A stretch of DNA of 63,055 nt, filler included, from Kipferlia bialata (lineage: Eukaryota), in NCBI GenBank assembly GCA_003568945.1. It is 7 parts of 7 records of this genome, joined end to end, with 100 filler letters (N's around TTAATTAATTAA, not from the genome) between each part and the next. Parts side by side here need not be neighbours in the genome. Positions count along the whole stretch, not along the records: positions 20,518 to 30,675 come from BDIP01001487.1; 6 more parts are not named here. One strand, given 5' to 3'. Position numbers and translations under genes: made by a program. The notes beneath the pieces were generated by a model, which did not search any database, was not told the origin of the DNA, and saw only the letters and a program-made list of their open reading frames with translations. This document shows, one piece after another, positions 124 to 41,099 of this stretch. The number at the start of each line of letters is the position of its first letter. The stretch's first letter is position 1.

Positions 124-9955
<9,832 letters not shown>

Positions 9956-10259: not shown

Positions 10260-10577
10260 AATTACCGGGTGGTGGGTCGTGTTTTAGATATTTAGGAAAA
10301 ACTTAACAGCCCTGGTCAGTGGTACCAGGTTCAAACAACTCAGACCCTTTCGAAAACTGAAAATCCGACCCAGCCTCGGCTCAGTGAGTCTCACTCTCTC
10401 TAGCATCAGTACACTGTGTGAGTGTATTGCTCTGTGGTGGTGACTGAGCGGTGGCTGTGTCGTGACTTCATTAAAGAGCGGCACACCCATAGGTTACAGC
10501 AAGTACCTCTAGACCAGAGCCTTGCTAGGTCCATCCGACCTCCATTCCATAGGGAGAGAGAGAGAGAGAGATCTCAG

Positions 10578-15988: not shown

Positions 15989-15990
<2 letters not shown>
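13027..15990 (+). CDS. hypothetical Pro/Ser-rich protein, 5 exons with a long terminal exon
   Basis: MDGSSALP... exon splices in frame through three internal exons into the 567-aa ORF ending TGA at 15990. No recognisable domain. Confidence 0.7.
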
Positions 15991-16038
<48 letters not shown>

Positions 16039-16438
16039 TCCCCCCCTTCGCATCCTCTTAGGCCGTTCCTTTGTATAGCTTGTGGTCTCTGTACACTATA
16101 GTAGTGTGCGTGGGAGTGCTTGGCCCGGGTCAGTTTGACCTGGTCCCCACTCCTATGCACGTGTGCAGGGCCCGTTTTCGTACCGATTTCTTTTGTGTAT
16201 TACGTACTATGTGTGTGCTTCCTGCTGATCTACCTGTGTTTGCACCGATAGCACATCGTTCTGAGTCTACCGTTGGTCTCAATGTATCCATTGTATTATA
16301 GTAAATGAAGCGTGAACAACACAGTGCACTTACTCATCCATCTATTCTGCATGAGTCCATATTCAAGCATCAAAGTAACAGGTAAACACTCAACGACAAC
16401 AACACAACAACACATCCAATTAGCAAAGGGTGCCCTCT

Positions 16439-19371
16439 CTATATCCTGAGCCTGGCTGCCATCCCCTCCCTGCCTATACCCGGTGATGTCTGGGTGGTGC
16501 TGAGGGGGTGGGTGGGGGTGGCCTTGGGGGAGAGGTGGGGGGTCCCTACTGGAGAGGGGCCATTGGCAGCCTCCAGAGAGGCAGAGAGGGGGGCGGGGGA
16601 GGGAGCCATGGAAGCCCTGGGGGTGAGTGGGATTGAGAGAGTTACATATACTGATATGTATATATATACCTTCGACTTTCGTCGTACTGTAGTGCATCGG
16701 ATACACTGTGTCTGCTAGTTGGGACGCCAAGGTGGGAGGCGATTGCCTTCTGGCACCTAGGCGGTCAGAGGACGTACTTGTGTATAGTACACACATACAT
16801 ACATATATATATATATATACCTGAATGCAAATGCAGCTGGTGCCTCCTCTGGCAGGGGTGACATGACAGGGAGGAAGGAGACCTGCACACGGTTGTACAC
16901 CTGGGTCATCATCTGGGGGTGAGAGGGAGGTATAGAGGGAGAGGTAGATTAGCATTCACACATACATACACAAATTAAGACACTGTTATGATTATGCTCC
17001 ATGCACACCTTGAACAGGTAGCACATATATATATATATTATAGAATGTACATATTATGATCCTTATCGGTACCTTGAACAGGTAGAATGTGACGTTCTGG
17101 GATGTCTGGCTGGCATTGTAGAACCGGTGGGGGTAGGAGATGGCCACGGGCTGGGGGTGAGACAAATAGACACCATTGATAGATACTCTTTAGAGTATTA
17201 TTAGAATATATATGTGTACATATATGTGGGGGGGGGTAGGAGATGGTCACGGGCTGGGGATCAATCTTGTATAATACTTGATTGGTACAGAGAATTTAGT
17301 ACATCTATATAGAGAGAGAGTACATATATATGTGTGGGGGTAGGAGATGGTCACGGGCTGGGGTGAGACATGGTACACGTTGAGATAGATACTTTAGTAT
17401 ACATTCAATACATATACGCAAATACTGTGGGGGTAGGAGATGACCACGGGCTGGGGATCAGTTGGATATATCAACCAATGTATATACATATACATACCTG
17501 GACTGGTCCGTTTCTGAATGCCCCGCTCTTGAACCTGGCTATGCAGCTGCCATTAGTGGCATGGCCCTGGGGTGAGGCACGTGGTATATATATGTATGTA
17601 TATACACATATACATAAACATATGTATATACAAACTATGCATACCTCTGGGAAGACTGAGACTGGGCATGCAGGCAGCCTCCCGTACCCCGACCCGTCCT
17701 TGACACAGTTCCTGGCCTCAAGGAGCTGGGCAGCCGCAATGCAACTGCCCCTGGGGTGAGAGAGTGAGGTAGAGAGCAAGTATGTACCTCTATTCACGAA
17801 TAAATATATGCACACATACTTAAAGAGAGAGAGACAGAGAGGAAGTAGCACCTGTCGTCTCTGTGGACTGTGATGCAGTTGTTGGAGCCGCATATCCCCC
17901 CTATGAGGGGTGAGTTTCTGACCGTGTCTGCCACCACAAAGGAGTGGATGGACAGGGCATTGCACACCTGGGATTATGGATGTGCACATATACGTGCATA
18001 TTCATATATATATACACATACCACCAGGTCCAGCCATGAGACATGGTTCATGACACAGGGGATGACGGCATCGGCAGAGGGCAGGGGGGTGGTCACCCTA
18101 ACAGTTAGCTACCTATGTGCACATATATAGATGTAGAAGGCAATGTATATATACATAAATATAGTGGCATTGACTGAGGAGAGGGGGGTCGTCACTCTGA
18201 GTGTGAGATGAATTAGTAAACATGATATGAGTATATAGATGCTATATATACATATATAGGGTAGGTATCGGCAGAGGGCAGGGGGGTCGTCACCCTGAGG
18301 GTTAGTACAGTAGAGAGAAAGAGAGAGAGAGAGAGAATGGGTGGGGGAGGGGCCATAAGGGGAAGCGGTGATCACCCTAATATATGGATAGCAGAGAGAG
18401 AGAGTTCCTCACCTGAGTCTCATGAACCCGAGGCAGTAGAGCAGGATCCTGGCACATCTCTTGGACGTGGCGTTGAGGGCAGCTCTTCTCCTGGGGTCCA
18501 TGGGGTCAGCGACCTACGGGATGAGGCTAAGGACTTACGCATTGTATATTAACATGCGAACAGTGGTATATATATGATACTTGTATCCTGGGGTCAGCGA
18601 TCTACAGGGTGAGGGGAGTGATATCAGAGAGAGTGGTAATCACATCATATACGAACATATATATGGAAACTCATGTATGACCTGGGGACCATCAAAGATG
18701 CGTGTAAATGACTGGGTACATTATAAGGTACAGTATAGAGAATGAGGCACAACATGTACCTGGGGTGCAGTGGAGAGGCCTCTGTTGTAGAAGACACCAG
18801 CCAGGCGCCAGTATATTAGGGTGAACCACAGGACGAGCATGCGGACAGGCCCTGTGGGAAGAGTATGGGGAATTGAGATAACACCATGACAGCAGTGTAG
18901 TGAAGAGAGAGAGAGAGTGACAGGGAAGCGTTTGGACCAGATCTAAACGTCACTCGGTGAAAGATGTGAGTACCAATCAATCAATCACGTACATAGCAGG
19001 GACCAGAACCCAACCTTGACCATCTCCCCTGGGTGTTAGAGGGAGTGTAGAGCATGAGGATGGAGACAATACAGGAAGTGATGGGTTTAAGGATTGACTA
19101 ACCGTATAAGACAGATACTTGATGGAGAAGATATAAAAATAGGTTATGGGGATCCCTATGCTCTCAACACATACAGGTCTTCTAATGGTGAATATAGAAT
19201 TCACGTACATGGGTGTGCAAAGGAGTGAGGGTGCTTCTTGCCTAGAAAGGCGTGTAGTTGGTCCTGCTTGGGGTCGATATCGAAGCCTATCCCCTCAAGA
19301 TCCTCGGAGAGCGACAGCCTCTCTGCTCGAGCAAGCGGGTGCGCATTATCTGTTGCTTGGGGGTTACTCAT
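16439..19371 (-). CDS. lysophospholipid acyltransferase (LPCAT/LPEAT-like, PlsC domain), multi-exon
   Basis: Minus-strand exons give PWEMVKVGFWSLLWPVRMLVLW (TM), VMNHVSWLDLV (HxxxxD motif), VSVFPEGHATNGSCIARFKSGAF..PVQPVAISYP and VSFLPVMSP. Stop TAG at 16439-16441. Confidence 0.85.
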
Positions 19372-19596: not shown

Positions 19597-20055
19597 ATGC
19601 TGTCTCTCATATCCACCATCCGCGGTGCTGTTAGCACGTCTCTGACTGGCTCTGCCTTCTCTGGCGCCGCCCGTGCCTTCTCGCTTGTCCCTGACGAGCC
19701 GACCTCCTACTCTGGGTATGCCGACATCGTGGATGAGCACTACTCCAACCCCCGCAATGTGGGAACCCTCGACGCCGAGGACGACGACGTGGGCACTGGC
19801 CTTGTCGGCGCCCCTGCCTGCGGAGACGTGATGCGCCTGCAGATCAGGGTGGACGACGATGGCAACATCAGCGACGTCAAGTTCAAGACCTTTGGGTGCG
19901 GTGCTGCCGTTGCCTCGTCCTCCTATGCCACGGAGCTGATCTCTGGGGGCAGTCTGGAGGACGCCATGGCTGTTAAGAACACCGACATTGCCGAGCAGCT
20001 GGCCCTGCCGCCTGTCAAGATGCACTGCTCCATGCTGGCCGAGGAGGCCATTCAG
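19597..20055 (+). CDS. iscU: Fe-S cluster scaffold IscU/Isu with an N-terminal organellar presequence; last exon not seen before the contig end
   Basis: HYSNPRNVG, GAPACGDVMRLQI, FKTFGCG and LPPVKMHCSMLAEEAI: all three Cys and the LPPVK motif are present. Donor GT at 20056. Confidence 0.96.
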
Positions 20056-20368
20056 GTACCATATATATATGTGTGTGTATGTGTATATGCAGGGTATATG
20101 TTATTTATACACTGATCCATGCTGGCCGAGGAGGCTATTCAGGTACGGTGATATGCATGTGTATTGGTGTATATATGTGTATAGTCTGTCGCTATTGTAT
20201 GGTAATGACATATGCTATTAGACTTCTGGAACCCTGCTCCACATTGTTATTATGTAATGTACAACATTGTCTCTTCTTCCCTGGCGCTGGGTTCCTCTGT
20301 CCTCCCCTATATATTCTCTTCCTGTCCCACCCCCAATACATATATTTGTGTGTGTTTGTGCATGGATA

Positions 20369-20605: not shown

Positions 20606-20809
20606 CTCCAGCCTGATGGTTCTGTACGTGCACCCCTGGCATTGAGGAGTGACCACTGTGTAGTCAAGATTAGGTATATACACAGTCAGAATCTCTCTCA
20701 CTCTCTCTCCATCGATATCTTCTTACTGTAGGGCGCATACCCACTATGGGTCAAGAGTGTGTACTCTTTATGGCGCACCTGTCATATTCTCTATCCCTCC
20801 CTCTATTTA

Positions 20810-20842
<33 letters not shown>

Positions 20843-23800
20843 CCTTATCTATAGATCCCCTACCCATAGGGGACTAGAGTGCACTCTCTATGCTGCCCCT
20901 CACATCTTCTCTCACTCTCTCTCTCTTCCTATATGTCTTCTGAATGCAGGGCCCACACCCATAGAGGCCTAGAATGCACTCTCTATGCTGCCCCTGTCAA
21001 TGACAATGGTACCCTTATACCAAGAGAGGGAGATGAGATAGGTTAGTACTATAGAGAGACATATATGTTTGCACTTATCTTACTCTCAGGCAGGCTCATA
21101 TCACACTACCAGCAGCTGAACCCTGATCTCACGGAGTGCCAGGTATATTTACCTGTATTATACACTAATCGTTACCAACACATACATGAAGTCACTGAAC
21201 TATTGAAAGGTAGTGTATACATCTAGATCTATATATCCCTGATCTCACGGAGTATCAGGTACTTATTTCCATATTGAATTACATATGTTCTTTCTCACAC
21301 CAAGATGTCAGTGTAATTTGCAACTCTCCCACGCTGCCCTGACATGCAGTCTGATATAGATATCGTATAGATAGACATGTATATTGGATTGAATATGTAC
21401 TGTTTTGTTGACGTCAGATGTCAATATATAGGTGCCACCCCCTAGACTGCCCCGACATGCTGCCTGATACTATATACATATAAACATATATACTATACTA
21501 TATATACCATATACATATTTTATTGAATGTGTAGTTCTCGATTAACGTCAGATGTCTATAGAAGGTGCCACCCTCCTAGACTGCCCCGACATGCTGCCTG
21601 ATACTATATACATATAAACATATTTACTATACTATATATATCCTTATTTATATGTATCAATGTATTGCCTACTCATACCAGATGTGCATTGAGGGTGCCA
21701 CCCTCCTAGACTGCCCCGATATGCTGCCTGATACATCTCTCTCTCTCTCTCCATACTTATATATAAATAGGTGTCACTACATTTCAGAAACTCATACCAG
21801 ATGTCTATAGAAGGTGCCACCCTACTGGACTGTCCCGATATGCTGTCTGGGTACCTACTCTCTGTCATCACACTGGCAGAGGGGGGGAGACCTATACCAG
21901 TATTAAACCCACATGCACTGGTATGTCTATACTATTAGTGCAATACCATATTCTCTATCCACTCTCTGTCATCACACTGACCGAGGGGGGGAGACCAATA
22001 CCCATATTGAGTCCACATACACTGGTACCATATGTGTTCATATATATACTGCTTTCTCTCATTGGATCAAGGCATTTGACACTTGTCTCACTCCTTGGTT
22101 CATTTATAGACTAGCTGTTATAGGATCAAATACACTTGTCTGACTCCTAGGTCAATGTATCCACACTCTCAGGGTGTGTCTATTGCCCAATGAAGAACGC
22201 GCTAGGTACGTTGGATGTTCATATATATATGTTGAGAGTGGTATGTATATATAGGTGTTACTCTCTGACCCCCAGACACCTATGTGTGTTCATATATATA
22301 TATATACATTTCAATGTCTGACCCCTCAGACAATAACTGTTCTTATGTATTGCTATTAGGTGTATATGTTCATTTTCTGACCCCCAGACACCTATGTGTG
22401 TGAGCCAGAGGGCATGAACTCACTGATGGACAAGGTATGTTGTATTTATCTTTGAGCACTCCTTTATACGGGACTGGTGTAGATGCTTACACTCTTATCA
22501 TAAGGGCACTATTCTTCACGGCGCCATCCAGGAGATTCCTAGCATTCAGTGCATATCAGTTACACACATACATATACAATAGTATTCAGATAGTATTTAG
22601 TTGTATTCTTACAATAGGGCACTATACTGCATGGTGCCATCCAGGAGATACTGGCCAAGAGACCAGAACACACAGGGGCAGCACTAGCCATGTACAGACA
22701 GGTACTGATAACACATCGACATTGACATGTATATGTATACTCAGATGTGATCACTTTAACATCGTCTGAATATATCACGCGTGGGCAGTACTAGCAGTGT
22801 ACATACAGGTAAGAGTTCTTTACATCCCCATAATGTCAGTCGTAACTCTTCCAATTATTTGTATATTATTGTGTCTAACCCCTCAGAACATCCTTCGTGA
22901 GGTGACTGCCAGACTGGACAGCATGGCATACAGCCTGGACCTGGCAGGTAACGATATTGTATATGTATATATATATTAGAGTATTACTATATATCAACAT
23001 TATTGGTCCTATGAGCTGACTATTCAGGACATCATGGCATACAGCCTTGACTTAGCAGGCACGTGATATATATCGTACATAGAGTAATCGTATACTCATC
23101 ATACAATGATCCAAAGTCTAGTGTCTACGACATACTGGACAGCATGGCATACAGCCTGGAGATGGTAGTTAATTATACAGTATGGAGACAATATATCACA
23201 TATAGATACCTCTTTTGAATTATAGTGTGAGTGTATGTCCACAGCCTATCCTTGTACATAGTGTTATGCTGTATTATACATGCAATTTTATATTATATAT
23301 GTTATACTATATTAGACTGACTCATCAGGTGACACCCCCCACCCCAACATTGTATTTATCCAATTATCCACCTCTCATATATCTTGTACTGACTGATCAG
23401 GTGACACCCCCCACCCCAAGCCAGACAGTGCCCTGGCCATGCACAAGTCACTCATGAAGGTATATATACATATATATATATATATACCCAACACACATAC
23501 ACACACATGTATATATACATATATATATTCCATGTATATATATACATGTATATATTCCATGTATATATATACATATATATATTCCATGTAAATATATTGC
23601 CCTGGCCAGGCACAAGTCACTCATGAAGGTATGGGGGATATGCGTGTGTACTCAATATATCACTATTCCATCGCAGTTAGTTGGATATACCACATGGTAT
23701 AGAACACTGTGTTCTCACCTGTAGGACATGGGCAACGTGGTCTCTCTCTCTGCCTCTCTCCTCGGTACATCCTCCCCTATTGTAGCACCTGTACCCGTGT

Positions 23801-26800
23801 GGCATAGTCCTAACACTACTACACACCCTGCAGTGAATGGTGCTACAATTCGTAGTGTCCACCCTAGCATGGGTACCTCTGCATCTAGTGGTATGCAACC
23901 TACAGTGGAGTTGGTAGGGTGTGAGACCCCTATGGTTGGACTAGGGTGCAAGGGTAGACTGGACGTAGTACTCAAGGACAAGGAGAGGGAGAGAGAGAGT
24001 ACCAGGGTGGTGGAGATCAAGACCACTCTTAAGGACCCGGTGTCAATGGGATATAGGGCGCAGGTATGGGTATCATGTAGATTCATATATTCATGATGTA
24101 TTGTACATCGTGTATTGTTGTTGTGACCACTCTGAAGGACCCAGTGTCAATTGGTTATAGGGCGCAGGTACGTACTTATATCATGTATGTTTCTCTGAGT
24201 ATTAGGTATTGCCTTCCATTGACCGCAGGCTCTCCTGTATATGAGCATGATCAGGTCTCGCAGAGCGTCGTCGCTAGGATCGAGGTATGAGATAATGATA
24301 CATAAACAGAATACCCAATAGTCCTATGAATATGCGTCCAAGCATCTATGAGTCTAAGTGTAGGCAGAGAAGTGCCCCCTACACAACCGATACTCAGTCT
24401 GACAATGACGACGTTGTTAGTGAACTAGCCGGAGTGAGATTCGTAGACATGAGGAAGGTAATCACGATTTCTACAACATCTTATATATCTTTTGTTACTC
24501 AGAGCTATGTTTGTGATGTGAAGAAGAGGGACTGCCGTCTCCATACACCCCAAGTATATGTAGATGTATTTGTATATAGATTCACCTAAGATATTAGTTA
24601 TATGTTACTCTCAATACCGATAGAGACAGTGTCGAAAGTCTAATTCGTAGAACAATGACTCTGGTCCACGTCCACCCCAACGCCCTACCCGGGTACCTGT
24701 CAAGAGTATGGGGGAGGAGGAGGACTTGATGGACCTACGAAACAGGTATGATGTCATTCAGTATATATGTATGTATATATAGAGATACGCATCATATTGT
24801 GTTTCTGTCAAGAGCATGGGGGAAGAGGAAGATCTTATGGATCTCAGGAATAGGCGAGTCATACTTGCACACCTAAGTCTCCTATGATACACATGGCATA
24901 CATCTTCTGGCACTCACATCCTCTTGCAATGTATAGAGAATTGTTTTCTATTGTATCGTGTCCAATACCCAGGTACATCCTGTGCCACTCCACCCTGCTT
25001 ATACTCCATATGGAAGCTTCATATGTATTATCAGTTCTAAATATCTCACCTTAGGTACATCCTGTGCCACACCACCCTGCATAAAGGGTCCAAGAGAGTC
25101 ACAGAGGTTGTAGATCTAACAGAGCCAACCATTGACACACCTATACCTGAACCAAGAGCTGAGCCAGCTCCCCCTACTGATATTGAGTCCCTTTGTAGTG
25201 TTATCCACTGTCCAAAGAGACAGGGCCAGTACTGTGGGTGCTGTCCATTGCACTCGAACGCGCCTAACGGAGAGGGAGAGGGAATGTGCAGTAACAATCT
25301 AGGTACGTGCAGTATTTTGGGGTGTCTTTGTTTCGATTTGTCTGGGTAATATTGGCACATTGGTATTATATTGTATTCCGTATATTGATCATATGCCCTC
25401 ACGCCTAGTATCCAAGTGGCTAGATATGATCAATTCAGAGGACGCTGCCATCAGCAAGGGCAGGGACAGCGTCATATTCTTCCACTCAAGGTATTGTTTG
25501 TGTATATATACCACACTATATGTCATGTATCAGATGTTGTTGTGAAATTGTGATTGTTTGGAGTAGTCTCTAACACCCTAGAAGGGGCACTGTATACACC
25601 CTCGACCCCGCCTCCAACACTGACTGGACATCTCCAGTTGTCCAGAGTGTGACTGGGGTGACAAGTATAGACGAGGACGACACCATCGAGTTGACATTCC
25701 GCTGCGAGTCACTCCCTTCTGTCGTCTACAGTGACTATGTATCCATCTCTCTCCTTGACAGAGAGACTCTCTCTCCTGCCTTACCCTCTCTGTGCACCGG
25801 GAGAGTGACAGCAGTGGACAGTCACTCTGTTACAGTATCTGTCTCCCTCTCTCTCTGGAGGGGGTCACTCAACCTGTCCAGAGTGTCAGCAGAGGACGTT
25901 AGAAGAGGGTGCTTCGCTATTTCAAATGTGAGTTATTCCCCCTCTATCCCCCTTCCCCTCTTACGTTGGTGAGACCTTCCCCCCATATTATATATTTGAA
26001 TACCCAGCGTCTCTCTCTCTCTCTCTCTTTATCCTGCCACTCAGTATTAGCACGCAGACGGTGCTCGTTCCTTAGTTACTCTTAGATCCACCTCAATATT
26101 TATGCTAGCCTCTCTCTTCTAACTGTTAGCACGCAGACGGTACTCGTTCCTTGGTCACTCTTAGATCCACCCTGATGTCTGACACTGTCCTTGTGCCCAG
26201 AGCCCTGTGTGTGTTAGGAACAGTTAGTAGAAGTAATAGGTATATATATACAACAATATATATGTATATGTATACAGGTATATGTCTGCCGGGGCAATAG
26301 GTCAACATATATTCATATATATATATACATATATGAGTACTTACTATATATAGTATATGTATGTGTGTATGTTGGGAACAGTCATCCGGAGCAAGAGCTA
26401 CCACACTATATATACAACATACGTACAATTGTACTATTATATGACTGTGTTAGGAAGAGTGAACAGTCTAGTTAGTATATCTGCATTGTTGTACTTACAC
26501 AGTGATGGATACCCTCCCATCCACCATGTCTCCCCCGATTCCATATATATAGTATCATGTGCACATTTCGAAGTATGTATGTATATTCACAAGTGCTGTC
26601 CCTCTCTCAACTGACCTCAGCGGTGGATACCCTCCCATCCCCCCTGTCTCCCCCCTTGCCACCTATGAGAGAGACTACCCAAGACTGGCCAAGTGCATAC
26701 CATTCAATGAGGGGCAGGCGGAGTCACTTATGGCACTGAGAGATACCCCACTGGTACTGACTCAGGTATATACGTTGTCCTCTATATATATACCTGTACT

Positions 26801-27167
26801 ATGACAGATTACATGGAACGATATGCCCCAAGGGCTATTGCCACAGAATACCTAGTAATCGTTAGTATAATGTTCTGGTGTTCTTGTGTTCTCTCATGTA
26901 TGTCTGTTTGACCTTCAGGGTATGCCAGGCTGTGGAAAGACTTCCTTAGCTGCAGCTGCGGCTATCGTCAAGTAAGTCACTCTTAATATTTCCCACAATG
27001 TCTTAGATGTCCTCTTCTCGTTTGGGTATGCAGTTACTGGCCCTGTTTTCAGTTCTCTATATTCTTTTGTTCAGCTTCTTATCCTAGACTACGTGACCCG
27101 ACGTCTGGTGTCCTTCTGATAGGGGCCACCAATGCAGCTGTGGACAACATACTACTAAGGTACATAT

Positions 27168-27198
<31 letters not shown>

Positions 27199-28738
27199 GT
27201 ATATACGTGTATTCACAATATACATTTATGCTCCTGATCGGTGCCACCAATGCAGCTGTGGACAACATACTGCTAAGGTACATATTCATATGTCCATATA
27301 CTGTATGTCCCAATATCTAGGATTGCAGAACAGAGCGTACAGTATGAAATGAGACTTGTATCTTCTACTGTCTATTATGGGTATGCACTGACTGAGTAGG
27401 ATGCTGGATGCCGTCCCGCTTGGCCCCCAGAGAGACAGGTTCACAAAGGGCACAATTAGAGTCGGGTCAAAGCACTGGTATGGATATAAGAAGCATATAT
27501 ATATATGTGTGTGTGTGTGTGTGTATGTGTGTGTGTATAAGTGAACGGAATGACACACTCGTAGTGGAAGTGACACATTGGTACAACACTTGTTTGGCGT
27601 ATGCATTATTCAATGATTGCCATACATTAGCGCCACAAACCTTATGGGCGCTCACTCTTAGTGTGAATCCCCTGCTCCACTCCGTTCTTCTAGAGAATAG
27701 GATACCAGAGCAGACATCCACCGACACTGAGGTGAGTATGTGTGAGTTTGTATAGATGCCCAAGACGTATATATTATCTACCATAGACTGCCCATGAGAC
27801 TTCAGTCTCTTCCGGACGTCCATTATAGGTTGGTTGTTCACAATATGTGATATATTTCAATCATATAGTCTTACTCTAGACTATCCTCCTGCAGGGTATC
27901 CTATCTAGCTGAAGGGCCATGGCAAGTACCAGATATATACATATGTGTATATGAATATATTTATACAAATATCAGACTATCCTCCGTCAGGGTATCCTCT
28001 CCAGGTGGAGGACTATGGCCACCTCCAGAGTGATGGCTGTGACATATATACATACATACATAAACCATGTTAATACTAACTCTAGACAATACTGCGCCAG
28101 GGTATTCTCTCCCGTTGGCGTACCATGGCCACTACTAGAGTGATGGCCGTCACTGCTCACTCATGCCACTCCAACGACGCAGTCAGGTTCTGGGCAAAGA
28201 GGTTTTCTAGCAGGTATTACACTATTAGTATTCAGACTATGGAGAAATACCCTGTGTTTGTATATGATGTTTGTATATGAAAGAGGTGGATGCAGTCAAA
28301 ATCTGGGCAAAGAGGTATTCTAGCAGGTTTGTATTATACCCCTAGCATATACACTACATTGTAGGAGTAACCTATTTATAACTATATATAGTCGGATTCT
28401 GGGCAATTGGGTATTCTAGTGGGTGCGATGTGTAAGATAGACGGAAGAATTACCCCATCTCTCTGAATACAAACTTAGATGCACTTCTCACATATAAGTG
28501 TACTATATATTATTGCACACTCACGTCAGACCTGTGCTTGTCATAATCGATGAGGCTGCCCAGCTCTCTGCCCCCTGGGGTGCACTGCCATTGGCATGGG
28601 CCACATCGGCACTGGTACTAGGTATATATATGTATGTTGTATATGTAGTATGTAATATATATATATTCATATGTATTAGTGTACGATTATTGTATGCACT
28701 TCCCCTGGCATGGGCCACATCGGCACTGGTGCTAGGTA

Positions 28739-28792
<54 letters not shown>

Positions 28793-30466
28793 TGTAGGAT
28801 AGAGTGTATTATTTCTCTGTATTGGCATCACATATTGTAAGCTTATATTCTTTCTCTCACCACTCCAGGTGACCCCAAGCAGATGTCACCCCTGTCCATG
28901 TGTGAGAGGTGAGTGGTTCATATATATGTTTACTATAAAGACCGTATTTACCATTGGTTTGAGTAAGTTACAGTATCTCATTCTTATTCCAGCTCAAATG
29001 ACGGAATGGGCGCCTCTCTCTATGCCTCCCTCGATGCCATTCAGTCCCACTCCATAGCACGCACTGTCCTATCCACACAGTACAGAATGAGCCAGGTATA
29101 CCAATATATATTTCTATATACATGTATACATGTAGTATATGTGTATAATCTTCTACTGTACATAATTAGCATTTCTATAGCACGCACAGTGCTGTCCACA
29201 CAGTACAGAATGAGTCAGTTAACGCCAACACTACACCTGTAGCGCCTTCCATTATGTCCAGATTCATCCTTGTATTTTGAATCCAATATGTTCTGTAATA
29301 TTTCATTATATCCCATATGTGACATTATATCCACGGAGGCCTGTTTGCTATTTAATGTATATGTCTAGTGTGTGTTACGGGATAATTCCCACCTCAGCCC
29401 CTCCTGTCCCTGTGGAATGACACATTCAGAGAGGTGTACGGCAAGGGGATGGTGTCAGGTATGGGTGTATGATTCAGTGGTACTCTGATACTCAAATATA
29501 TATGTTGGTATTAAACGTGGTATTTACCCCCAGGCCTCTCCTCTGAGCCTGACATGTCAATTAGAGTGTGAATATATTGATCCATACATGTATCTGTACA
29601 TCATGATGTTTAACCCAGGCCTCTCCTCTGAGCCTGACCTGTCCCCCAGGAACAGCCAGGTCCCATACCCACCAGACATGCCTAGGCTGAGGTATATATG
29701 CCAGATGCAACTGTGTTTGAATCACTACATCTATACCAATACATTGTATAACTACATATGTTTGTAACACATTCACTCTTAACCCCAGTCCCGGTCTGGC
29801 CGGCTGTCTAGCCTCTCCCCTCCCCTCCCTAGTAAGGGTGAGTGATGACCCAGTGGCAGTGGCGGTGGGCCTGGCAGTGCAGTGTATATGCAGGTACATA
29901 TAATCATACATGTGAAAATGAATATATATATGAATATATAGGTGTGTGTATGTGTGTGTGTAGCATGACCCAGTGACAGTGGCTGTGGGTCTGGCAGTAC
30001 AATGCATATGTAGTATCATATGTCACATATATGGATATACATGTATATACTGCAGTATTAGTCTATATACACTCACCCCCAGCTACAAGGTGACCCCCGA
30101 CCAAGTGAGTGTCATGTGTGGGTTCAGAAGGGACGCAGCCAGTGTCAGTGCGGCACTAGAGTCTATGGCCGTAAGAGGAGTTGAGGTGAATTGTTATATT
30201 ACTACAGTATGTCTGTGGGTGAACATATATATATATATATATATATTAGATGCAGCCAGTGTCAATGCAGCACTGGAAGGGATAGGAGTGAGAGGAGTGA
30301 AGGTATGACGACACAGTATATTGGATTGTATTTTTCTATATTACTATTGTGTAGTGTACACTATATCTTTCTTTAACCCCTAGGTCTCCACCATCGATGC
30401 CTTCCAAGGACGGTCCAAGAGGGTGGCCATACTGCTAGTTAGGGCTAGTCCAGCTGGGAGATACAG
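20606..30466 (+). CDS. DNA2: DNA2-like nuclease/SF1 helicase, multi-exon, partial at both contig ends
   Basis: Nuclease region: LNPHALVNVSTLSGCVYCP, GTILH, GCKGRLDVVL...VVEIKT...YRAQALLY (RecB-type PD-(D/E)xK), then a Cys cluster. Helicase region: QGMPGCGKT, GATNAAVDNILL, VIIDEAAQ, VLGDPKQMSP, LSTQYRM, VSTIDAFQG. The domain order matches Dna2. Confidence 0.85.
21300..21850 (+). repeat. exon-echo array: four acceptor-side copies of the DNA2 exon starting at 21801
   Basis: AG|ATGTC...GGTGCCACCC..C.AGACTGCCCCGA.ATGCTG variants at ~21305, 21417, 21552 and 21682. Confidence 0.88.
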
Positions 30467-30861
30467 GTATTACGTATACAAAATCATGCTATGATCAGTA
30501 TTATCAATACTGATTTGAACTAACTAGCGCGGCGTGACCCTCCGGGTCACCAGTGTGGCATACACTAATACATATTCCCCTGGACAGTACCTATACATTG
30601 ATTTATAGGAATACCGTCGGCATCTTATCAAGTGTTATGTGTGGTAGAATGCCAATACCGTCCATGGACAGTCTCNNNNNNNNNNNNNNNNNNNNNNNNN
30701 NNNNNNNNNNNNNNNNNNNTTAATTAATTAANNNNNNNNNNNNNNNNNNNNNNNNNNNNNNNNNNNNNNNNNNNNGAGATTTTTTACTTCCCCTTATACC
30801 CCCCCCCCCCCCCCTTCCTCCTCGGCCGTAGAACTCTTTCATGATATTCCCTATTGTGTCA

Positions 30862-33800
30862 GTGATCGATGCTCTACCCTTTCTCAGCCACATCCTCTCT
30901 CTCACCGCAAGGGGACCGCCGGTCTTCTGCCACCAGCCGTGTGTATCTGTTTGTGTCCAACTCCTATGCCTTCATCATCAGTGCAGGGGCCACCAGGTAG
31001 GCTAGGAGAGGGGGGGGGGTACAGGACTGTTCTGTGTTGTCACACAGTGATACATGCGATGTGGGTATGTGACTCACCCCAGGGACAGGGTCCAGCTGAT
31101 ATCCATCGACAGACACAGTGGGGCCCTGGTGCACAGGGGGGAGCCAGGTGGGGGCAGATTGTATGTCGTGCATTATTGGATGTCTGGGGGGCATGACTGG
31201 GTATATATATATGTATATTTCATATATACCCAGTATTCCTGCGAGTGTCTGGTTAGTACTGTGGGGGCTGATATCCCATTGTCCTATTACTACTCACTTC
31301 CTCCACACATCCAGCCGCATCTTAGACAATAATTGTGATCAGTGAATAGCGTTTGGCGTATGGCCCCACTTCCCCCTCCCTTTGTATATAGACACCTAGA
31401 ACTGAGACTTATACTGATACCTCTCAAGTACTCATCTCAGGTGTTGACCTGTTTGTGGATGTTGACGAGTGCTTCCTCTACCTGGTGGACAGACACCCCC
31501 AGATACAGAGGTGGGCAGGGCCGGTATATACATGCTGATGTGTGTCTGAGTGACGTTACTGTTCCATGAAGTGATATTTACTCTCACACATATATGTATT
31601 CTGTAAGAATTGGGTAAGAGTCGCAACCTACTGAGCCTTCCACTCTCTTCTGATGTATTCTTTCTGTCTTGCTTTGTCTTACCCCAGCAAGGGATACTGG
31701 GAGGGCGTGTGTCTGGCTGGCTACATCCCCTTTGCCTCCAAGGCAGTGCTTCTATTGGTCAAGGGGGCCCACGTCGTGGGGGTCTTAGGTATCACTCCAT
31801 AGTACTCTGTTGGTTACAAGTATAGGTTCAATGTATGGATTGTGAGACTATTCTTCTCTGATACGTCCAATGTATGTGTAGAATAGTCTGTAGAAATTGG
31901 ATCCTGTCTCTAATAGACTGTATCTATATGCCCAAGTATATATTGTAGGAAGCATTACAGATATACATGTATACATCGGTCAGGATACCCCTCTACCCCT
32001 CCAATCTCAGGTGGACAACACGAGGTCATGCAGTGTGAGCACATCGACACAGTGGTCATTCCCCTCCTCACCCCCTTCCACACCCTGGCAGCACCTGGAC
32101 CTGTACATGAGGTGGAGGTGAGGGCATCCCATGTGCAGTGGGATAACGGGAGGGGATCCCTATTGGCGTTATATGTAGCAATTCGTATCCTTCCACGGCC
32201 ACTGTCATAAACCTTTCATATGTATACATATCCTTTCTGGTTATCTTTCACCAAGTATTCTCAACTTCAGCAATCCAGTGAAAAGGAGAGGGAGAGGGAG
32301 GTGTTTAACGAAGAGAGTCAGGTGAGTCCATTTCATAATGATCGTGTGGGAACAGGTTTTAGTTGTCTCTGATCTCTTGCCAGTTCTATTAGTTGTGGTT
32401 GTGGCTATGTTATTGTCTCTTCCAGTCAGTCATCATATAACCATCTATGGATCCACCTCCCTTACCCTGCAGTTTGGGGCCCAACCGCGGCAGACGGAGA
32501 GAGAGAGAGATAGGGCGGATACAGCCAGAGACAGGGTCCCCTCAGAGAGAGAGCACCACACGACAGGAGACGAGCAGAGGGAGAGAGAGAAGGAGAGGGA
32601 GGCTCAGGTAAGGGTGTGGCTCAGTTGTATATCGGCGTTCCTTGGCTCTCATCCGCAGGACCAGTACCTGTGCCACCTCAAGATATTCCTGGAGTCCTAT
32701 GCACACTCCCTCTACTTCTGTGAGACGCTGGATCTGACGCGGCAGTTCCCATCAATGAGGTGAGTGATTTGTATGCAATATATTCAGAGATGACCGTAGT
32801 GATATATGTGTGAATGTTTGTATCGACACTCTCCTCAAACGGACATGGATATCTATATCGTGGATATCGCCGAGGGTTTATCATCTCATACTGTTCTTTC
32901 CACATATTAGTCCCCACCTCCCTTCTCACCCAGTGCTGTCGACAACCCAGCAGCAGCCTTCTGCTGGAACCACTCCCTTACAGTGGCCCTCAGACGCTGT
33001 GGGCTGCCTCACCTGGCCCCCCCTCTGCTACTAGGGTATATGTATATGTATATTTGTGGATTGTGTTCCATAGGTTATGATACTCTCTTCGTGCTGTGGC
33101 GGCAATGCATTCTGTTCATATCAATATTATTATGCCTGTAATTGTTTGTGTGTACGCTACAGTGTTTCATTCTGGACGTGTCTTTGAAATGATATGTTTA
33201 TGCACATTGGCCCTGACTTCTGATTCTAATGTCTACTCCGCCATTAGTGTGTCTGACCACAGGTCTGTGTCTGTGTCTGTTGCACAGTGTCCAGGCTCGG
33301 AGAGAGACAGGGAGAGAGAGAGACTGGAAGTGGAGGGAGGGAATGATTCAGGTGCGAGACGTGTATGTATACTGTTGCTTCTCCCTCTCTCCTTCTCTTC
33401 CTCTCCCCCCAGCCCCTTCTGTGGTGTGGATGTTCTCTCGCCTGGCCGTGACCCACCCGTACCTGTCAGACAGGGAGGGCATCGACCCAGTCAGCGGGGG
33501 GTGCACCATGGAGACAGAGATAGGTAGGCAGATAGGGGGGGGGGGTATACACTGAGGGTAGTGTCGAGTCCTCGGATAGTTCCCCTGGCTTCTGAAGGAT
33601 TGACATTTTGATATATAGCTGATGGATGGATTGACTGATCCCAGAGGTTGTGATGGAGCAGCGGCTCTCTGTGCCCCTCACTCCACCGTCTGTTGAGAGC
33701 GAGCGAGAGACATGCCCTGAGGACGAGATAGAGACTAGGGGAGACGGAGATGGTCCTCTCGAGTGTTCCAACCTCAGAGAAGGTACTCTCTCTCCCTAAT

Positions 33801-36800
33801 TTTGTATACAATGGAGCATTGGTTATTTGTGTATAGTATACACATATGTATATATGTATATATATATATATATGAGTATGTTTAGGTACTCGTTGTGTAT
33901 AGCCTCACCCCAGTGGACGAGGCATGTACTCCCAGCAGACCCACAGTCTCCACACCCAGAGGAGACAGAGACAGTGGGGAGGGGGCTGACATCGACGCTG
34001 CCTTCTCGTCTCCCTCTCCCTGCAGCGAGAGTGACAGAGACACCGTGGTGGCCACCCCCATAGCACCCCTGTCCCAGAAGGCCAGGTGCGAGTGCTATAT
34101 ATATTTAGTGGGGCATACACAGTGCGAGAATGACTGTAGGATATTTCTTGTGTCTCTACATGATATTCACCAACACCAGAGAGGAGAGGGACAAGCAGCG
34201 AGAGAGAGAGAGAGACGGAGACTACCGGTTTGGTCGCAATCCTCCAACTGAAGTACGTATTGGATGTGTAGAATGTTGGATCTACCTCAGTAGTCATGTA
34301 CTCTCATGGCATGCTTTTGACTCACCTGCAGGACACCAGTATGGACCAGTACTGGTTTGCCAGTCACATAGTGAGGACTGGGGGAAATCCAGTGGTGAGT
34401 GATTGTGCAGTACCCACTCTGAGTGACCGTGTGCTGTTATCCACATACCACCCTTGACCTCACTTCAGGTGCACTCCTCTCCGTCTCAGACAGAGGCCGA
34501 TGACGCCTTATACAGGTATGTTCCTTTGTGCTCTTCAGTGTTCTCTCCATTCTGTTTTGGACTCTCCCTCTCCCTCCCCCCCCCTCCCCACCCCCAGGTA
34601 CTGGTCGTCATACTCAGATCGTTATACAAAGGGGGTATACACCCCACGGCCTGGGACCAGTCCCCTGTCTCCCTGTGTCTGTGCTCCGTCAGTACACTGC
34701 ATCAACCTGTTGAGTCACAGGTACGTAGATGTGCAGTAAGGCAGTCTCATATCTTATGAGACACTCACGAATATATAGTGCTTTGTCGTTTGCGTACTCT
34801 GTGTCGTGTCAGGATGGTGTACTGACTTTCCAGGGGTACCTCTGTCCACTGTCAGTCCAACACACAGGTCCTGGAGACCATCGGTAGAGGTGCGGTATCA
34901 TGGAGTGTCTTTGTCCTTGTACTGTGAGTGTGTATATATAGTCTCGGATGTTCTTCTTCGCTGTCCTACCCTCCCCCCTCCCCTAACCCTCAGGTCTCCT
35001 GGACATGTCTGTGCGCCTTGGCCTGCCTGTGTCTGTGTCAGATGCCTCCATAGACACCCCAGACGTGGAGGACCATCTATCAGAGGTGGGTCCTTGGCAG
35101 CTCCTTGTGTTGTCTATTCTGATATGTGTTTCATCTGTACTTATATCAAATCATCATTGTCTGACCCAGGCCATCCAGCGTCTGTGGACCTGTCTCCAAG
35201 GGGTGGTCCAGAGTACACCAGGTACCTATACACTGCCTCACCACTTCCAGTATATATGTTGTGCGGCAGATCTAGTGTTGAGTCCTGTTTTGAAAGCCGA
35301 TGGTAAAGACACCAACATCAGATCTCTCTGTCCCGATTCCCTGTTCTGAGCCAAGTAACAGTAGAGGCGGCAACGTAGACTCCGGAGTATACACCTGCGG
35401 GGTCATGACTATATCCAGACGACACTCGCCCCTCCCGGAAGGAGAGAGAGAGAGGGATTTTGATGCATATGAAGACTCTATGGGAGGTTCTGTGTCTCTA
35501 TCTGTCAGTGGGGAAGGAGAGAGAGAGACTATAGTGACCAAAGTGCAGTTGAGTAAGAGGCAGACTAAGGTGAGATACCCAGTTCTGTTATCGCTTGAAA
35601 TTGCCATACCATTTCAGATCACAATTAGTACCACCCATGGTCTCTTTAACACCCCAGGTTATAAGGTTCCTGGCAGACGACTCTGGACACCTGGACGTGT
35701 CTCTGTTCCTTCTAGGTGATAAGTGATAACAAGTGTTCTATACCCTGTTGTGTATGTCTTGTACATGTGCTCAATGACTCTCTAACCGTAGGGACCCAGG
35801 TGCTGTCCGACATGCACGACTGTCTCAGCAGGCATGTGAGGGGAGGCACGCAGGGGGAGAGAGGAAGAGAAGGAGAGGGGGTGGCTAACACTCCCTGGAG
35901 ACTCCTGCCAAAGGTGACATCAGCCACGTTAATACTCATGTCATATCTATATTCTATGTATTGGTGAATGCCAGGGCCCGTCTTATCCCAGGTGGCCAAG
36001 CTCTCTGCGTCTCATGGCAATGACGCCGGTAACCAGTCTGGCGTGTCTATTCTGGATGGACAGCAGGAGGTATGGGTCTGTGACAAATGGCATTCTCCCC
36101 CCCCCCCTCCTTCATGTCTTGTGTTGTATCGCCCTGACCCCAGGTGTATACGGTGTGTGGCCAGGATGGGACACCGACATGCCTGTCAGACTACGACGAT
36201 GTGCTGAAGCAAGTCAGGCATGCTAGTGCTATCCACAATCGAGTCAATGCGACTGTCTAATGTAGAGCATTCCTCTTTGTCCCTCTCTGACTGCCAGGTA
36301 CAGCATGCCGTGTCCCCTCGTGCATGCTCTGGCCTCTGCCTACCAGCAGCACATGGACGCGTGTAGTGTGTTCAGGGGCGACCCTGACCCCTGGTGCAAC
36401 AGGGTCATAGAGGGGTACACACCCAGTGAGAAGGTACATGCATTCTCATCCGTTGAGATATACTCTCATATATCCCATATTTGTGTTCTGGGTCAAGGTT
36501 TACTGGAGTCTTGGGTCGTTTCCTCCTGACTCCAGCTCCCCCCCACCCGTCACAGGCAGAGACACCGCAGGATGGTGGCATCTTTCCACCACTCTCTGAA
36601 TGAGGTATGGTTGGTCTCACATCATTCCCAGTATGTGCTTTATCCCCCCCCCCCCCCTTATGGTCAGGATGTCTTTGGGGCCATGTCCGGCAGACACTTG
36701 ATAGCCAATCCCTACCTCAGTACTCTGTTCTCAGGGCCCAGTGAGAGAGGAAGAGTGGGGCGAGTAAGAGGCGCGGACAAGAAGAGGGAGAGAAAGGCCT

Positions 36801-39800
36801 CGTCCGTGTCAGGTATCTACCCTTGTCGCTCATCTGTCTGCTACGTTGTGGAAGAAGAAGTCCGACACCTTATCACTCAAAGTGTTTCCACATTTCTTTT
36901 CTCTGTATGTCCATTACTTACCCCTAGCTATTCAGCCCCGTGGCCACTCTGCCCCCTCAGAGTCTCTGGTGCAGGTGGGTCTGTTGTTGCTGGTGCTGTT
37001 CTTCTCTGTTATAAGTGTCAACCGTTCTCCATATATACCATTTGGCACACCATATATCATAGTTGTTCACCGCTTATGCCCAGCTCTGTACCTGCTCCCA
37101 GACAGTCTCTCTGACTCAGTCCGAGATGGACAGGGAGAGCCCTGCTGAGCGGCAGAGGCGGGAGGAGAGAGAAGTGGAGAGGGAGAGGGAGAAGCGTCAG
37201 CAGCGGAACAACACCGTAGAGCTGGCTGCATCTCGACGCCCTGTGCCCCTACCCAGTGTACAGGTGTGTACAGTGTATGTAGGTTCAGTCTAAGAGGAGT
37301 TTCTGAAACTGTATCTATTGTTCAGGGCCATATCCACCCTCTTAATCTCAGCTCTCCTGCCACGTGCGTGGAAGTGCCTCAGAGACCTGTGCCACGGATG
37401 TACCAACCGTCAGGGGGAGGACGGATATCCCTGGAAGGTGGGTAGAGTGTATGTATACAGTACGGAGTAAGCGTGTGAGTTTCATGAGTTGGTGATCTAC
37501 TCTACGTGTATATACTGATATTACCTCACCCTTGCACATTTCTGTGTTGGGCCCCCTCTCACCCTGCAGCACAGACGCTCTCGATTCCATCGACTCCATC
37601 CATGTGCGTGCCACACGGAATGGGACTGAGGAGGAGCAGAGTGCGAGTGAGGGTGAGGGTGAGGGTGAGGGAGTGGAGTCACGCCCCCCAGTATGTGAGG
37701 GAGACTCTGACACCTATATGGAGGAGACGGTCCTCGCCCTGCCGTCCCCTTCGTCGCTGGCCTACCTGTCTCTGTCCCTCCCTGTGTGCCCTTCCCTATC
37801 AGGATCTCTGCCTGTACCCCTACCCCTCAGCGTGGCGGTGGAGACAGGTGCGACCCAAGACTTACGGCATACTTACCCCTCCATCACCCTGCCCCTTTCA
37901 CCCTCCAGGTCCCTCCCTTGAGTCTCTGTCTTCAGTTCTACTGGCCACGCCTCTCCCAGCATTGGCCCCAGGTATGCGGTGTGTCTTCACTTTCCTTCCA
38001 GCACTCTGTCAGTAACAAGTGTCAGAAGTAACGCCGTACGTGGTGTCTCGAGCGATTAGACCTGTGTCTCACCTGCAGGGGATGCCCCCCTTGTGTCAGA
38101 CGCAGAGATGGAGAGAGAGCGACTCAGAGTGGAGAGGAGGGAGAGAGATAACCTTCAACGTGGTGGTGTGAGCGGGTGAGTGTTTCTCTCTGTATATTGG
38201 TTCTATTTCCTATTAGGATCCTACTTCCAATGAGTCTCTCATGCTAATGGGCAGGTTTGTCCTGAACGAGTCATTGACTGATATGAGTTCCCTCCTACCC
38301 GTGGGCAGGGAGAGAGAGAGAGAGAGAGACATAGTCATGCCTGTGAATGCTCTTGGGGCAGGGCACTCAGTTCGACAGGAGAGAGAGGACCGTGGGGAGT
38401 ACGGTTTGTCTCGTCCTTCCATGCCGATGTCCGCCCAGAACAGCCCAGGGGTGTCATTTAGACAGGTACGTGTTTACTGCATGAGTGGCATTTTAGTGGA
38501 GATAGAATTCACCTGTGTCTTTGTGATATCACTTTGTATATTCATATTGTCTTGAGAGTGAGTGCCCGTCACTGACCCAGCCGATGTCGCTGGGGGACTC
38601 GATGCTGGACGAGGGTAGGGACAGAGAGAGGGACACAACCTCATTCTACGGATCTAGAGAGAGGGAGAGAGAGAGAGACAGGCAGTCTACGGACAGCATG
38701 AGGGTACGGTGATATATATATTGTTGATGGACACGGCAGTCTCTGCATCTAGCATGTGAGGTGTTATCCTCTACTATTCACCCCAGGTTAGTGTTTGCAT
38801 CCCATTGAGTGCCAGCTATGACAGGAGTGTTACATTCAGGGGCACCCGTACGGTACCAGAGGAAGTCGTATCCGTAAGGTGTGATATCTCTTTTGGTGTC
38901 TCTTCCCCCCTTTCCTCACCCAGGGGTGCTGTCTCAGGCACATCCTCCCTCGGCAGACACAGACACAGTATAGAGGGGTCAGCCGACATAGAGAAGGTGG
39001 GGGTCAGGAACTGGGCATACGTACATATAACGAGTGATCTCTACCCAATTATGATACGTGTTCAACCATTGGTACAACTGTAAGTGGTCATTCAGTCTCG
39101 AGCCATTGCTCTCGAGTTGCATAGTCTCTATATATATATGTGTACTATCTGCAGGACTCTCACCTACAGGTCCAGCGTCTGGAGTCCGAGGTGGAGGCCC
39201 TCTGTGCATTCACTACCGAGCAGGTGGGTGTGTCGTCTGTCACGCTATAGGCTGGTGTCAAGGTGTCAGTGGAGTAGGGTGTTGTGTCAAGTGTGACCAT
39301 TATCGTGTACCTCTGTGTTTCCCGATATTTTCAATCATTATATGCTCGTCACTTCATAATAGTTGTATAGTCAACAGGTCTGACTGCAGGTGCAACGTCA
39401 GAGACAGTCCCCCAGGGAGAGGCAGGTAAGATGATTCACTACATCAGTGTATTTATCAATAATCTACATGTCTGCACTTTCAGCCTTGCCACTATTACAG
39501 ATTCCTCCCAGGTTTCCTTCGGCCATACTGTTCTGATGTTGATGTCTGTTCTACTCTTCTTATGTGCCAGGAAGAGGATACCAGGGGTTCTGTAGTGTAT
39601 CTGCAGGAAGACCCGCTGGTGTCTGTGGTCAAGGTGAGTACTTGTGGGTGTTTGTACAAGGAGATAGGCGTAGCCAGTATCATCAGACTCTGATACAATG
39701 GACGGGACTGTTAGCAAGCTGGTAGTTGCAGGGACGCCGTGGTTGGTATTATAGAGATATAATCCCCTCACCTCCAGGTTACCATCAAGTACCAGGCCTC

Positions 39801-40751
39801 TGCCTGTCCTGAGGCACACCCAGGCACAGATCATCACCCAGGACTCAAGGTGGGTATGAGGATACAGCCAGCCATGGTGTAGATAGACTATGCCACCCTT
39901 GCTGATGCCTTGTCTCATTGCCAGGCTACGCTGTATGGCTATCCCCTCTCCCACATGCACATTGTGACCGCCTCAGACGTTCTAGCCACTGAGGGAACCA
40001 AGCATGGGCTCTATCTGCCAGGTGGGCTTTGCCTTTGTATCACTTCCAGTCATTGCTATCATTGTCGTTGCTTGCGTCGGTGTCCGTGGCAATCGATGCG
40101 TATTCTACTATAGTCCACTCTACTCTCCCTCTGACTCCCAGCCAGAGTCTCAGTTGGTACTGGGTCATATGCGGATGGAGGTACATACGAAATGTAATAA
40201 GCGTTAATATGTCTGAGTATGACTTGGTACTCGTAACTTGACGGTTTCATGTTCACTATATGTCTATATTCACTATCAATATGGAGAGTTGAATATTAAT
40301 TACAATTTGTGGTCTTTCATGTTTCCGTGTCATACCAACCATCTCTCACTGTAGGTATAGACCGTGACGCTGACATGACATCCCTGTACCTGAGTGCCAT
40401 TCTGTCCAGACAGAGGAAGCAGAGAGAGAGAGAGGCAGAGGGAGAGGCGACCGACAGAGACCTCCACTCTACCAGACTCAGCGGGAGGGGGGGGAGGGCC
40501 AAGTACCCTTCTACACCAGGTAGTAGTGTCGTACACTGTGTGCTAGATGTAGTTGTATGTGTGGTTGTGTATATGTCTCCTCGCACCTGCCTCTGACCCC
40601 AGGTGGGGAGTCCGGTGTGTCTACCCTCCCCCCCAGGTCATCACGGCACAAGGCCCAGCCCCATACACATACACCCCATACACATACACCCCACACCAAC
40701 AGGAGGGGGATGCCGGTGTCTCTGCCCGTGTCATCACCCTCGCCAGCACAG
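30862..40751 (+). CDS. large multi-exon hypothetical protein (possibly more than one gene); boundaries approximate
   Basis: Alternating GC-rich exon-like blocks and GT-AG introns on + across the whole contig (e.g. QYLCHLKIFLESYAHSLYFCETLDL; DMTSLYLSAILSRQRKQRE). No family recognised. Confidence 0.45.
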
Positions 40752-40876
40752 GTATGTATATATGAGTATATGTATGCATGTATGCGTATGAGTATGTGGA
40801 AGCAATGGGACGTGGTATGCAAGGGACAATCATGTACCATTGAATCCAGCTCTGCTGTATCTCTTTAGCTTCACCG

Positions 40877-40927
<51 letters not shown>

Positions 40928-41027: not shown

Positions 41028-41078
<51 letters not shown>

Positions 41079-41099
41079 ACAGGGCACGGGGGAGGGCAT

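Follow-up and report, generated by a model that had tools for sequence, protein, structure and literature searches.

Splice-site-anchored partial copies of exon ends in introns of Kipferlia bialata and their apparent coding-like divergence from the live exon

The window, that is, the whole 63-kb stretch of Kipferlia bialata DNA analysed here, is a chain of contigs with N spacers between them, and the locus described below lies in the contig at 20518-30675. A one-long-exon search returned a sole protein, P0001, with the source name 'DNA2, partial [Kipferlia bialata]', and the Pfam domains found on the gene (Dna2, PDDEXK_1, AAA_11 and AAA_12) agree with this name. P0001 maps to 31 exons with GT-AG introns. 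Its annotated C-terminus, RYYVYKIML (30467-30491, + strand), seems to run into an intron, and the gene probably continues past the contig end. The locus itself comprises intron 22 and the start of exon 23 (Table 1). The intron contains two partial copies, A and B, of the start of the live exon, C; such intronic copies of exon ends are referred to here as echoes. An AG is present at 27878-9, 27974-5 and 28084-5, and the acceptor score is 7.6 for the decoy site of B and 10.4 for the live site. TACTAAC at 28074-28080 is presumably a branch-point-like motif.

Table 1. Features of the DNA2 gene and of the intron 22/exon 23 locus, in window coordinates
Feature	Position	Strand	Evidence
Partial DNA2 helicase/nuclease gene; 31 exons annotated, its 30 introns containing 30 anchored echoes	20606..30491	+	P0001, Pfam, exon map, echo search
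Exon 22, donor joined to 28086	27662..27731	+	RNA contig joint, GT..AG, 354 nt skipped
Echo A: decoy AG and 18 codons of exon start, 4 missense, TGA at 27910-27912	27878..27933	+	Alignment, in which A sides with B and not with C
AT-rich flank separating A from B, with (TA)n tract at its start and decoy AG of B (27974-5) at its end	27934..27975	+	Sequence
Echo B: 23 codons, 12 synonymous and 1 T>S against live exon; intronic, own end without donor	27976..28044	+	Alignment, RNA contig, path enumeration
AT-rich flank with live 3' splice signal, AG at 28084-5	28045..28085	+	Sequence, RNA joint
Live exon 23, first 69 nt being copy C	28086..28213	+	RNA contig covers exon and joins exons 22 and 24
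Donor-side echo of exon 23: decay-like, 1 synonymous/3 missense, GT intact, RNA-skipped	28289..28326	+	Echo search, RNA contig
Second donor-side echo of exon 23: decay-like, 1 synonymous/4 missense, RNA-skipped	28390..28422	+	Echo search, RNA contig

An earlier sequence-only reading of this DNA had reported 12 synonymous changes and one T>S between B and the exon start over 23 codons, and alignment of the three copies gave the same counts for B (27976-28044) and C (28086-28154), with mismatches at codon positions 1/2/3 of 3/0/13. The missense changes and in-frame TGA that it had reported for A were also recovered: over 18 codons, A (27880-27933) differs from C by nine synonymous codons, four missense codons (R>L, R>S, T>A and T>S) and a W>TGA change, with mismatches by codon position of 3/2/12, so that a third-position bias is seen here too. 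Nucleotide differences were counted along the most synonymous path. The B-C comparison yielded 15 synonymous and 1 non-synonymous differences (p about 3e-5, against a synonymous share of 0.43-0.44 expected for a dead B and a C changing only silently), the A-C comparison 12:5 (p 0.02), and the A-B comparison 6:6 (p 0.35-0.4), the last resembling plain decay. At eight synonymous sites A and B are identical and C is different; thus A clusters with B to the exclusion of C, which is likely the newcomer among the three copies. On the same alignment, A resembles a B-type exon that was copied long ago and has since decayed. The description of A as an aged pseudo-copy needs one correction, its comparison with C being third-position biased and only that with B resembling plain decay. 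The longest exact run common to copies is 12 nt, and B and C share at most 11 nt. The B-C comparison has a pS of 0.8, and the closest homolog conserves the B segment only loosely.

Contigs from sequencing runs were compared with the locus only over 27560-28730, and two runs match, both represented by contigs of one sample. The DNA run, X1, is possibly the source of this DNA and hence not an independent sample, and X2 was classed as RNA by inference, the run record itself being silent and the contig splicing at GT..AG. A single X1 contig of 1258 nt was found to span 27560-28730, including A, B and C, with 0 differences; its depth is 425.6, the other contigs listed having 333-498, so it is not at half depth. 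No DNA joint between copies occurs among the joints listed for contigs over 27560-28730, and no second DNA contig covering the exons at 85% or more was found. The head-to-tail duplication is therefore present in genomic DNA, as judged from one spanning contig. The X2 contig splices from 27731 to 28086 and then from 28213 to the next exon, skipping A, B and the two donor-side echoes. As the RNA goes straight into 28086, the mRNA is not a mosaic of two copies, although RNA contigs lose rare isoforms and minor use of echoes could be hidden. When every GT/GC-AG path running through A or B was enumerated, none preserved protein length, and no usable donor was found at the end of A or B. Because the RNA contig skips B and no path through it preserves length, B is real but appears dead, and no longer constrained; the coding constraint seen in it appears to be historical. 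Thus, the view of the sequence-only reading that the echoes are genomic relics and not misassembled alleles agrees with one ordinary-depth contig spanning all three copies and an RNA contig skipping two of them, and its proposed splice check came out, at the contig level, with entry at the 28086 AG and with the AGs at 27878-27879 and 27974-27975 unused. The case that it had named against itself, complete alternative exons with their own donors, was not encountered, A and B being partial copies. Its further claim that B is a fresh, coding-constrained copy was not supported, B having neither a length-preserving splice route nor an RNA contig, and decoy sites being lost neutrally, as described next.

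The echo feature is common to the window and is not peculiar to intron 22. All statistics come from the 63-kb window, in which seven further genes, these without RNA, were modelled by a small predictor trained on DNA2 and then curated by hand; by motif, we take modelled genes to be RPB1, DYRK, IscU, LPCAT and pyruvate formate-lyase (PFL)-activating enzyme. The predictor recovered 26 of the 31 DNA2 exons exactly, and it called several echoes exons, so echoes are a likely trap for gene prediction. Two modelled chains kept stops when joined, and phases were therefore assigned per exon. The 120 introns yielded 104 echoes in an anchored search, of which the 89 measuring at least 20 nt (20-69 nt; 54 and 68-69 nt at the locus) were kept. 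In a control, the same search matched 1 of 2943 non-adjacent exon/intron pairs at a length of at least 20 nt, and echoes of at least 20 nt occurred in 62 of 240 adjacent exon-side slots versus 0 of 238 wrong-end slots. No echo is a complete exon: each includes one splice site as its anchor and covers at most 71% of the exon. Median intron length is 99, 189, 312 and 440 nt for introns with 0, 1, 2 and at least 3 echoes (n=58, 35, 14 and 11), a growth of about 100 nt per echo, and the 62 nearest echoes are spaced by 59-169 nt, in most cases 95-125 nt. The GT or AG is retained in 78 of 89 echoes and lost in 11, compared with 11.2 losses expected if neutral; the decoy splice site scores at least as high as the live site in 39 of 89. 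GT directly follows 1 of 32 acceptor-side echoes. As raw counts without a background, ATA follows 9 of 32 acceptor-side echoes and TAT precedes 10 of 57 donor-side echoes, junctions often abutting (TA)n; the 'ATA' is partly one family. The idea that the ends of A and B are G>A-inactivated or AT-AC donors was dropped, given this family effect and the lack of a length-preserving GT/GC-AG path.

Several other regions of the window were noted in passing. Almost no echo pairs were seen, in the visible output, at 9000-17000 and 30776-40927, which are long-exon or intron-poor sequence. At 8320-8790 (+ strand), after the body of the RPB1-like gene and with an N gap inside, there are five near-identical copies of an acceptor and short exon start (SYEMPMFSP), which were left out of the statistics. 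A single-exon gene at 44023-45219 (- strand), a gene with one donor echo at 19600-20146 (+ strand) and a third gene at 61458-62400 (+ strand) are, by motif, presumably kelch-like, IscU-like and proteasome-beta-like, respectively.

How do the echoes differ from their exons? Pooled over the 89 echoes, 247 synonymous and 149 non-synonymous nucleotide differences were counted, against a synonymous share of 0.40-0.46 expected of dead copies across the range of transition biases (p<=4e-11), and the nearest echoes alone show a synonymous excess with p 8e-13. Among the 36 nearest echoes with at least 3 differences the pattern is heterogeneous (p 1e-4), extending from purely or nearly silent echoes (11:0, 13:1 and 10:1) to plain-decay ones (1:6 and 1:7). 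Silent changes are clustered, with 49 adjacent pairs versus 36 expected (p 4e-4), identical blocks of about 20-40 nt adjoining fully changed patches, and they are concentrated towards the splice site, affecting 85 of 306 splice-proximal versus 42 of 306 junction-proximal codons, whereas missense changes are flat (p 3e-4). The clearest splice-anchored patches in the window are those at 57305-57644 and 55296-55532 (+ strand), in each of which six consecutive codons beside the donor are silently changed after long identical blocks; the patches (57305-57404 and 55296-55424) include Leu family switches both ways. In 18 families, sites at which the echoes agree against the exon number 28 synonymous to 5 non-synonymous, compared with 33:45 at echo-private sites. 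At sites private to the nearer echo the ratio is 16:13, versus a neutral expectation of 25-29% (p 4e-4 to 3e-3), a test that presumes the nearer echo to be the younger. Missense differences drift towards AT (70 versus 43), and silent ones are balanced (75 versus 77). Given the neutral loss of decoy sites and the AT-drifting missense changes, the echoes, on sequence evidence, now behave as dead DNA, yet many of them differ from the exon like two coding sequences. A RIP-like process was ruled out as a source of the changes by fourfold sites, with 76 transversions versus 48 transitions, and a one-step mutation burst was ruled out by reasoning, the chance of 15 silent changes among 16 being negligible. 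Echo-exon pS varies by gene (0.42 in DNA2, 0.33 in the gene G51, 0.17 in RPB1 and 0.05 in DYRK), which suggests silent-site constraint or lower diversity in conserved genes.

The intron flank of an echo is usually unrelated to the exon's own flank. For 28 near-identical echoes the exactly shared flank has a median length of 3-4 nt including the GT or AG, and unrelated flanks also occur beside several echoes that show no more than one difference across 31-41 nt. Relative to a background of similarity between flanks of different loci, acceptor flanks retain a certain excess (0.48 versus 0.35) and donor flanks only a small one (0.40 versus 0.36). Individual families vary. In that of the RPB1-like exon 5404 (5404-5718, + strand), the flank scores 20 with the second echo and 3 with the first, 19 nt of intron start being common to the exon and second echo but different in the first echo; one Thr codon has three states, and missense changes are absent. 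In the acyltransferase-like LPCAT exon (17073-17450, - strand), the 3' splice signals of exon and three acceptor echoes alternate X-Y-X-Y; overall, an X-Y-X alternation is not enriched (7 of 28 skip-one versus 19 of 97 adjacent pairs, p 0.6). Exon 4 of DNA2 (21305-21920, + strand) has four acceptor-side echoes, all ending at exon position 49; in the nearest of them, three codons at the splice site form a private patch, where the second echo is identical to the exon. An intron-rich gene with a CxxxCxxC motif (41040-43003, - strand), which we take to resemble a PFL-activating enzyme, has mostly decay-like echoes, and one of its echo families shares 15-20 nt of intron flank, as expected of same-chromatid duplication. 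Hairpins in the two flanks of the intron 22 locus were not significant (z -1.37 and 0.78).

Simple custom likelihood models were fitted to the 62 nearest echoes (720 codons). The best fit was a splice-anchored, age-independent patch (lnL -549 to -551, share 0.5-0.7, T about 0.6), followed by an age-proportional acceleration of the patch, with a 22-29-fold rate (lnL -554), extra divergence of the whole echo (-555), a junction-anchored patch (-560), a uniform 5.4-fold speed-up of the exon (-570) and a dead-echo model (-602). The age-independent patch beats the age-proportional acceleration by only about 5 lnL. The dN/dS of the extra divergence is near 0, with a profile bound of about 0.04 and about 3 lnL lost at 0.05.

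In the best reading of these patterns, to which we give an even chance, the echoes are partial copies of exon ends that are removed by splicing and that would persist after a break in a short exon had been mended from a highly diverged homolog, with the ends rejoined out of register. A break inside a short exon would start repair from the homolog, an allele or homeolog. The exon-body end would invade the homolog within the exon, the only alignable DNA, and synthesis would run past the splice site for about 40-70 nt into the homolog's intron, often halting at a (TA)n tract. The copied patch may be too diverged to anneal with the other end, leading to end-joining instead. The new exon end and its flank would then go live, and the resident end would become an echo and decay neutrally. 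Since both versions would have been coding until the event, their differences would be almost all silent. Applied to the locus, this would make A an old relic of an exon of the B type; C would have arrived recently and displaced B, which thereby became an echo. Sister or near-identical templates would account for the echoes lacking a synonymous excess (30-50% in the fits). Such a mechanism would predict partial, splice-anchored echoes, unrelated flanks, silent patches on the splice side, enrichment of the most diverged donors and later neutral decay. Tandem genomic copies, use of C only in RNA, partial splice-anchored geometry and about 100 nt per echo are counted in its support, and the synonymous patches with unrelated flanks would point to one copy having been templated from a homolog. 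The splice-side gradient of silent changes, the better fit of an age-independent patch, the synonymous-rich changes private to nearer echoes and the out-of-order flanks of some families also speak for it. Metamonads are reported, in the accessible part of the source, to be without Ku and DNA-PKcs and to rely on homologous recombination and alternative end-joining (PMC8516963); K. bialata has been suggested from k-mers to be diploid (PMC5874029, in part), and crossovers in a hypervariable fungus are described as falling in exons (PMC4209137, in part).

The donor sequence was sought, and none was found. No second matching protein for a donor allele was found, including none among 7997 candidates; the next representative protein is only 33% identical, in a listing in which copies more than 50% alike are hidden. 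One metagenome scan matched 47 stretches, none confirmed as conspecific, and a second gave 80 loci with a best identity of 71%, no conspecific and no echo in the six best inspected; all of these blanks are weak evidence. Against repair from a homolog also stands the near-zero dN/dS of the extra divergence, even in a loosely conserved segment: in Schizophyllum commune, the accessible part of one study gives a dN/dS of 0.12 for allelic polymorphism and calls a synonymous diversity of 0.20 the highest reported (PMC4576712), and 0.20 is greatly exceeded by the patch divergence here (a pS of 0.8 between B and C and a fitted T of about 0.6). The low dN/dS might reflect the purging of those donor patches that alter amino acids. 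A more sweeping version holds that exon ends turn over genome-wide. Each end would be swapped together with the splice site and a new flank, and its recoding would be almost exclusively silent (dN/dS below about 0.04) and would extend up to saturation, so that nearly every intron stacks dated former versions. The exchange would draw on alleles whose divergence exceeds that measured in any eukaryote, or on an undescribed codon-preserving process. We regard this version as doubtful.

The main rival to repair from a homolog is fast synonymous change of live exon ends: a same-chromatid tandem duplication with new AT-rich filler, followed by rapid local change of the live end driven either by a mutational hot zone around the splice boundaries in use or by selection favouring the live site over the decoy (positive selection). 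It makes a donor allele unnecessary and a dN/dS near 0 natural, and both the 28:5 agreement of echoes against the exon in 18 families and the splice-proximal gradient suit it. However, it fits worse (-554 versus -549) with a 20-30-fold rate, and the 3' end of exon 23 is not accelerated relative to its own echoes (1:3 and 1:4). Loss of decoy GT or AG is not above neutral (11 versus 11.2), third-base changes have no GC direction (77 versus 75), nearer echoes have a synonymous excess of their own, and random filler would have to provide new splice signals. On balance, fast change of this kind seems unlikely.

We consider it improbable that the echoes are present or recent alternatively spliced coding segments, with both copies under protein-level selection on one chromosome. 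Such selection would account for the 22 of 23 residues kept in B, the GT or AG kept in 78 of 89 echoes and the 39 of 89 decoys scoring at least as high as the live site, and minor isoforms can escape contigs; but the RNA contig skips A and B, no GT/GC-AG path through them holds protein length, echoes are never complete exons and are followed by GT in only 1 of 32 acceptor-side cases, and splice-site loss proceeds at the neutral rate. Slimmer still is the chance of second-order selection, in which in-register pop-out or conversion would put the echo into the protein, so that echo missense changes are purged and silent ones, which lower recombination, accumulate. Synonymous-only change on both copies and a dN/dS near 0 would follow, but so would an even spread of changes breaking long identical runs, whereas the changes are clustered and 20-40 nt identical blocks persist; in addition, the 11 nt or less shared by B and C would probably be too little for frequent recombination, and DNA joints between copies are absent among those listed. 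Tandem stitching of diverged haplotypes during assembly is scarcely credible: diploidy has been suggested, the published draft is fragmented and short-read (PMC5874029, in part) and X1 may be this DNA's source and hence not independent, but a separately assembled contig spans the stretch with 0 differences at a depth of 425.6 (333-498 elsewhere) in place of separate half-depth contigs, copies share at most 12 nt, A has a stop, and RNA splices across both echoes.

If repair from a diverged homolog is the correct reading, one genome would be a readable record of lost alleles, and would give indirect evidence of recombination between hyper-diverged homologs, by cryptic sex or hybridisation, in a free-living fornicate. 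The echoes also offer many natural decoy splice sites in near-identical exon context and could serve to probe how exons are defined by a reduced spliceosome; snRNA candidates for it were not found, according to the accessible part of one report (PMC6679479). The same reading would also provide a way for introns to lengthen, in countable steps of about 100 nt, in a lineage without canonical NHEJ.

How do the echoes compare with known systems? Internal, or tandem, genomic duplication was reportedly treated by Gao and Lynch in 2009. No published account of such echoes in Kipferlia was found among top-ranked results of the open literature; 'duplicat' and 'heterozyg' are absent from the text of the Kipferlia genome paper, and the accessible text of the Introner survey contains 0 mentions of Kipferlia (PMC9860276). 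Duplications within genes that cross splice sites are already known, as is the gain of introns through a duplicated AGGT (PMC3443670, in part), and the echoes are similar in being short intragenic tandem copies with a splice signal hidden in an intron. Unlike in those cases, the echoes create no new intron and only one copy appears in the transcript, a donor in copy 1 with an in-register acceptor in copy 2 and a mosaic mRNA being absent at the locus; echoes are nearly as numerous as introns, their flanks are mostly unduplicated and the differences are mainly silent. Mutually exclusive tandem exon duplicates likewise consist of adjacent homologous copies with protein-preserving divergence, but there every copy is an entire exon, acceptor and donor included, whereas echoes cover at most 71% of an exon and carry one splice site, and those at the locus have no in-frame route and are skipped by the RNA contig. 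Introners and transposon-derived introns, in the part of the survey accessible, are similarly genome-scale intron-like insertions flanked by a direct duplication (PMC9860276), but the duplications are target sites of 3-9 bp and not exon ends of 20-69 nt (54 and 68-69 nt at the locus; 20-69 nt among the 89), and the echoes lie in existing introns, with no new position. Aborted allelic break-induced replication with microhomology-mediated rejoining resembles the proposed mechanism in that homology-primed synthesis stops early, rejoins out of register and duplicates; as far as the accessible text goes, the templates there are sister chromatids, the scale is in kilobases and the setting is Brca1-deficient mouse cells (PMC12309385), unlike an echo unit of about 100 nt and a template that would be a diverged homolog. 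Finally, as in Schizophyllum commune, recombination between diverged genotypes would be confined to exons or locally similar DNA; duplication scars go unmentioned in the accessible parts of those studies (PMC4209137, PMC4576712), and in K. bialata the divergence would be several-fold higher and the dN/dS lower.
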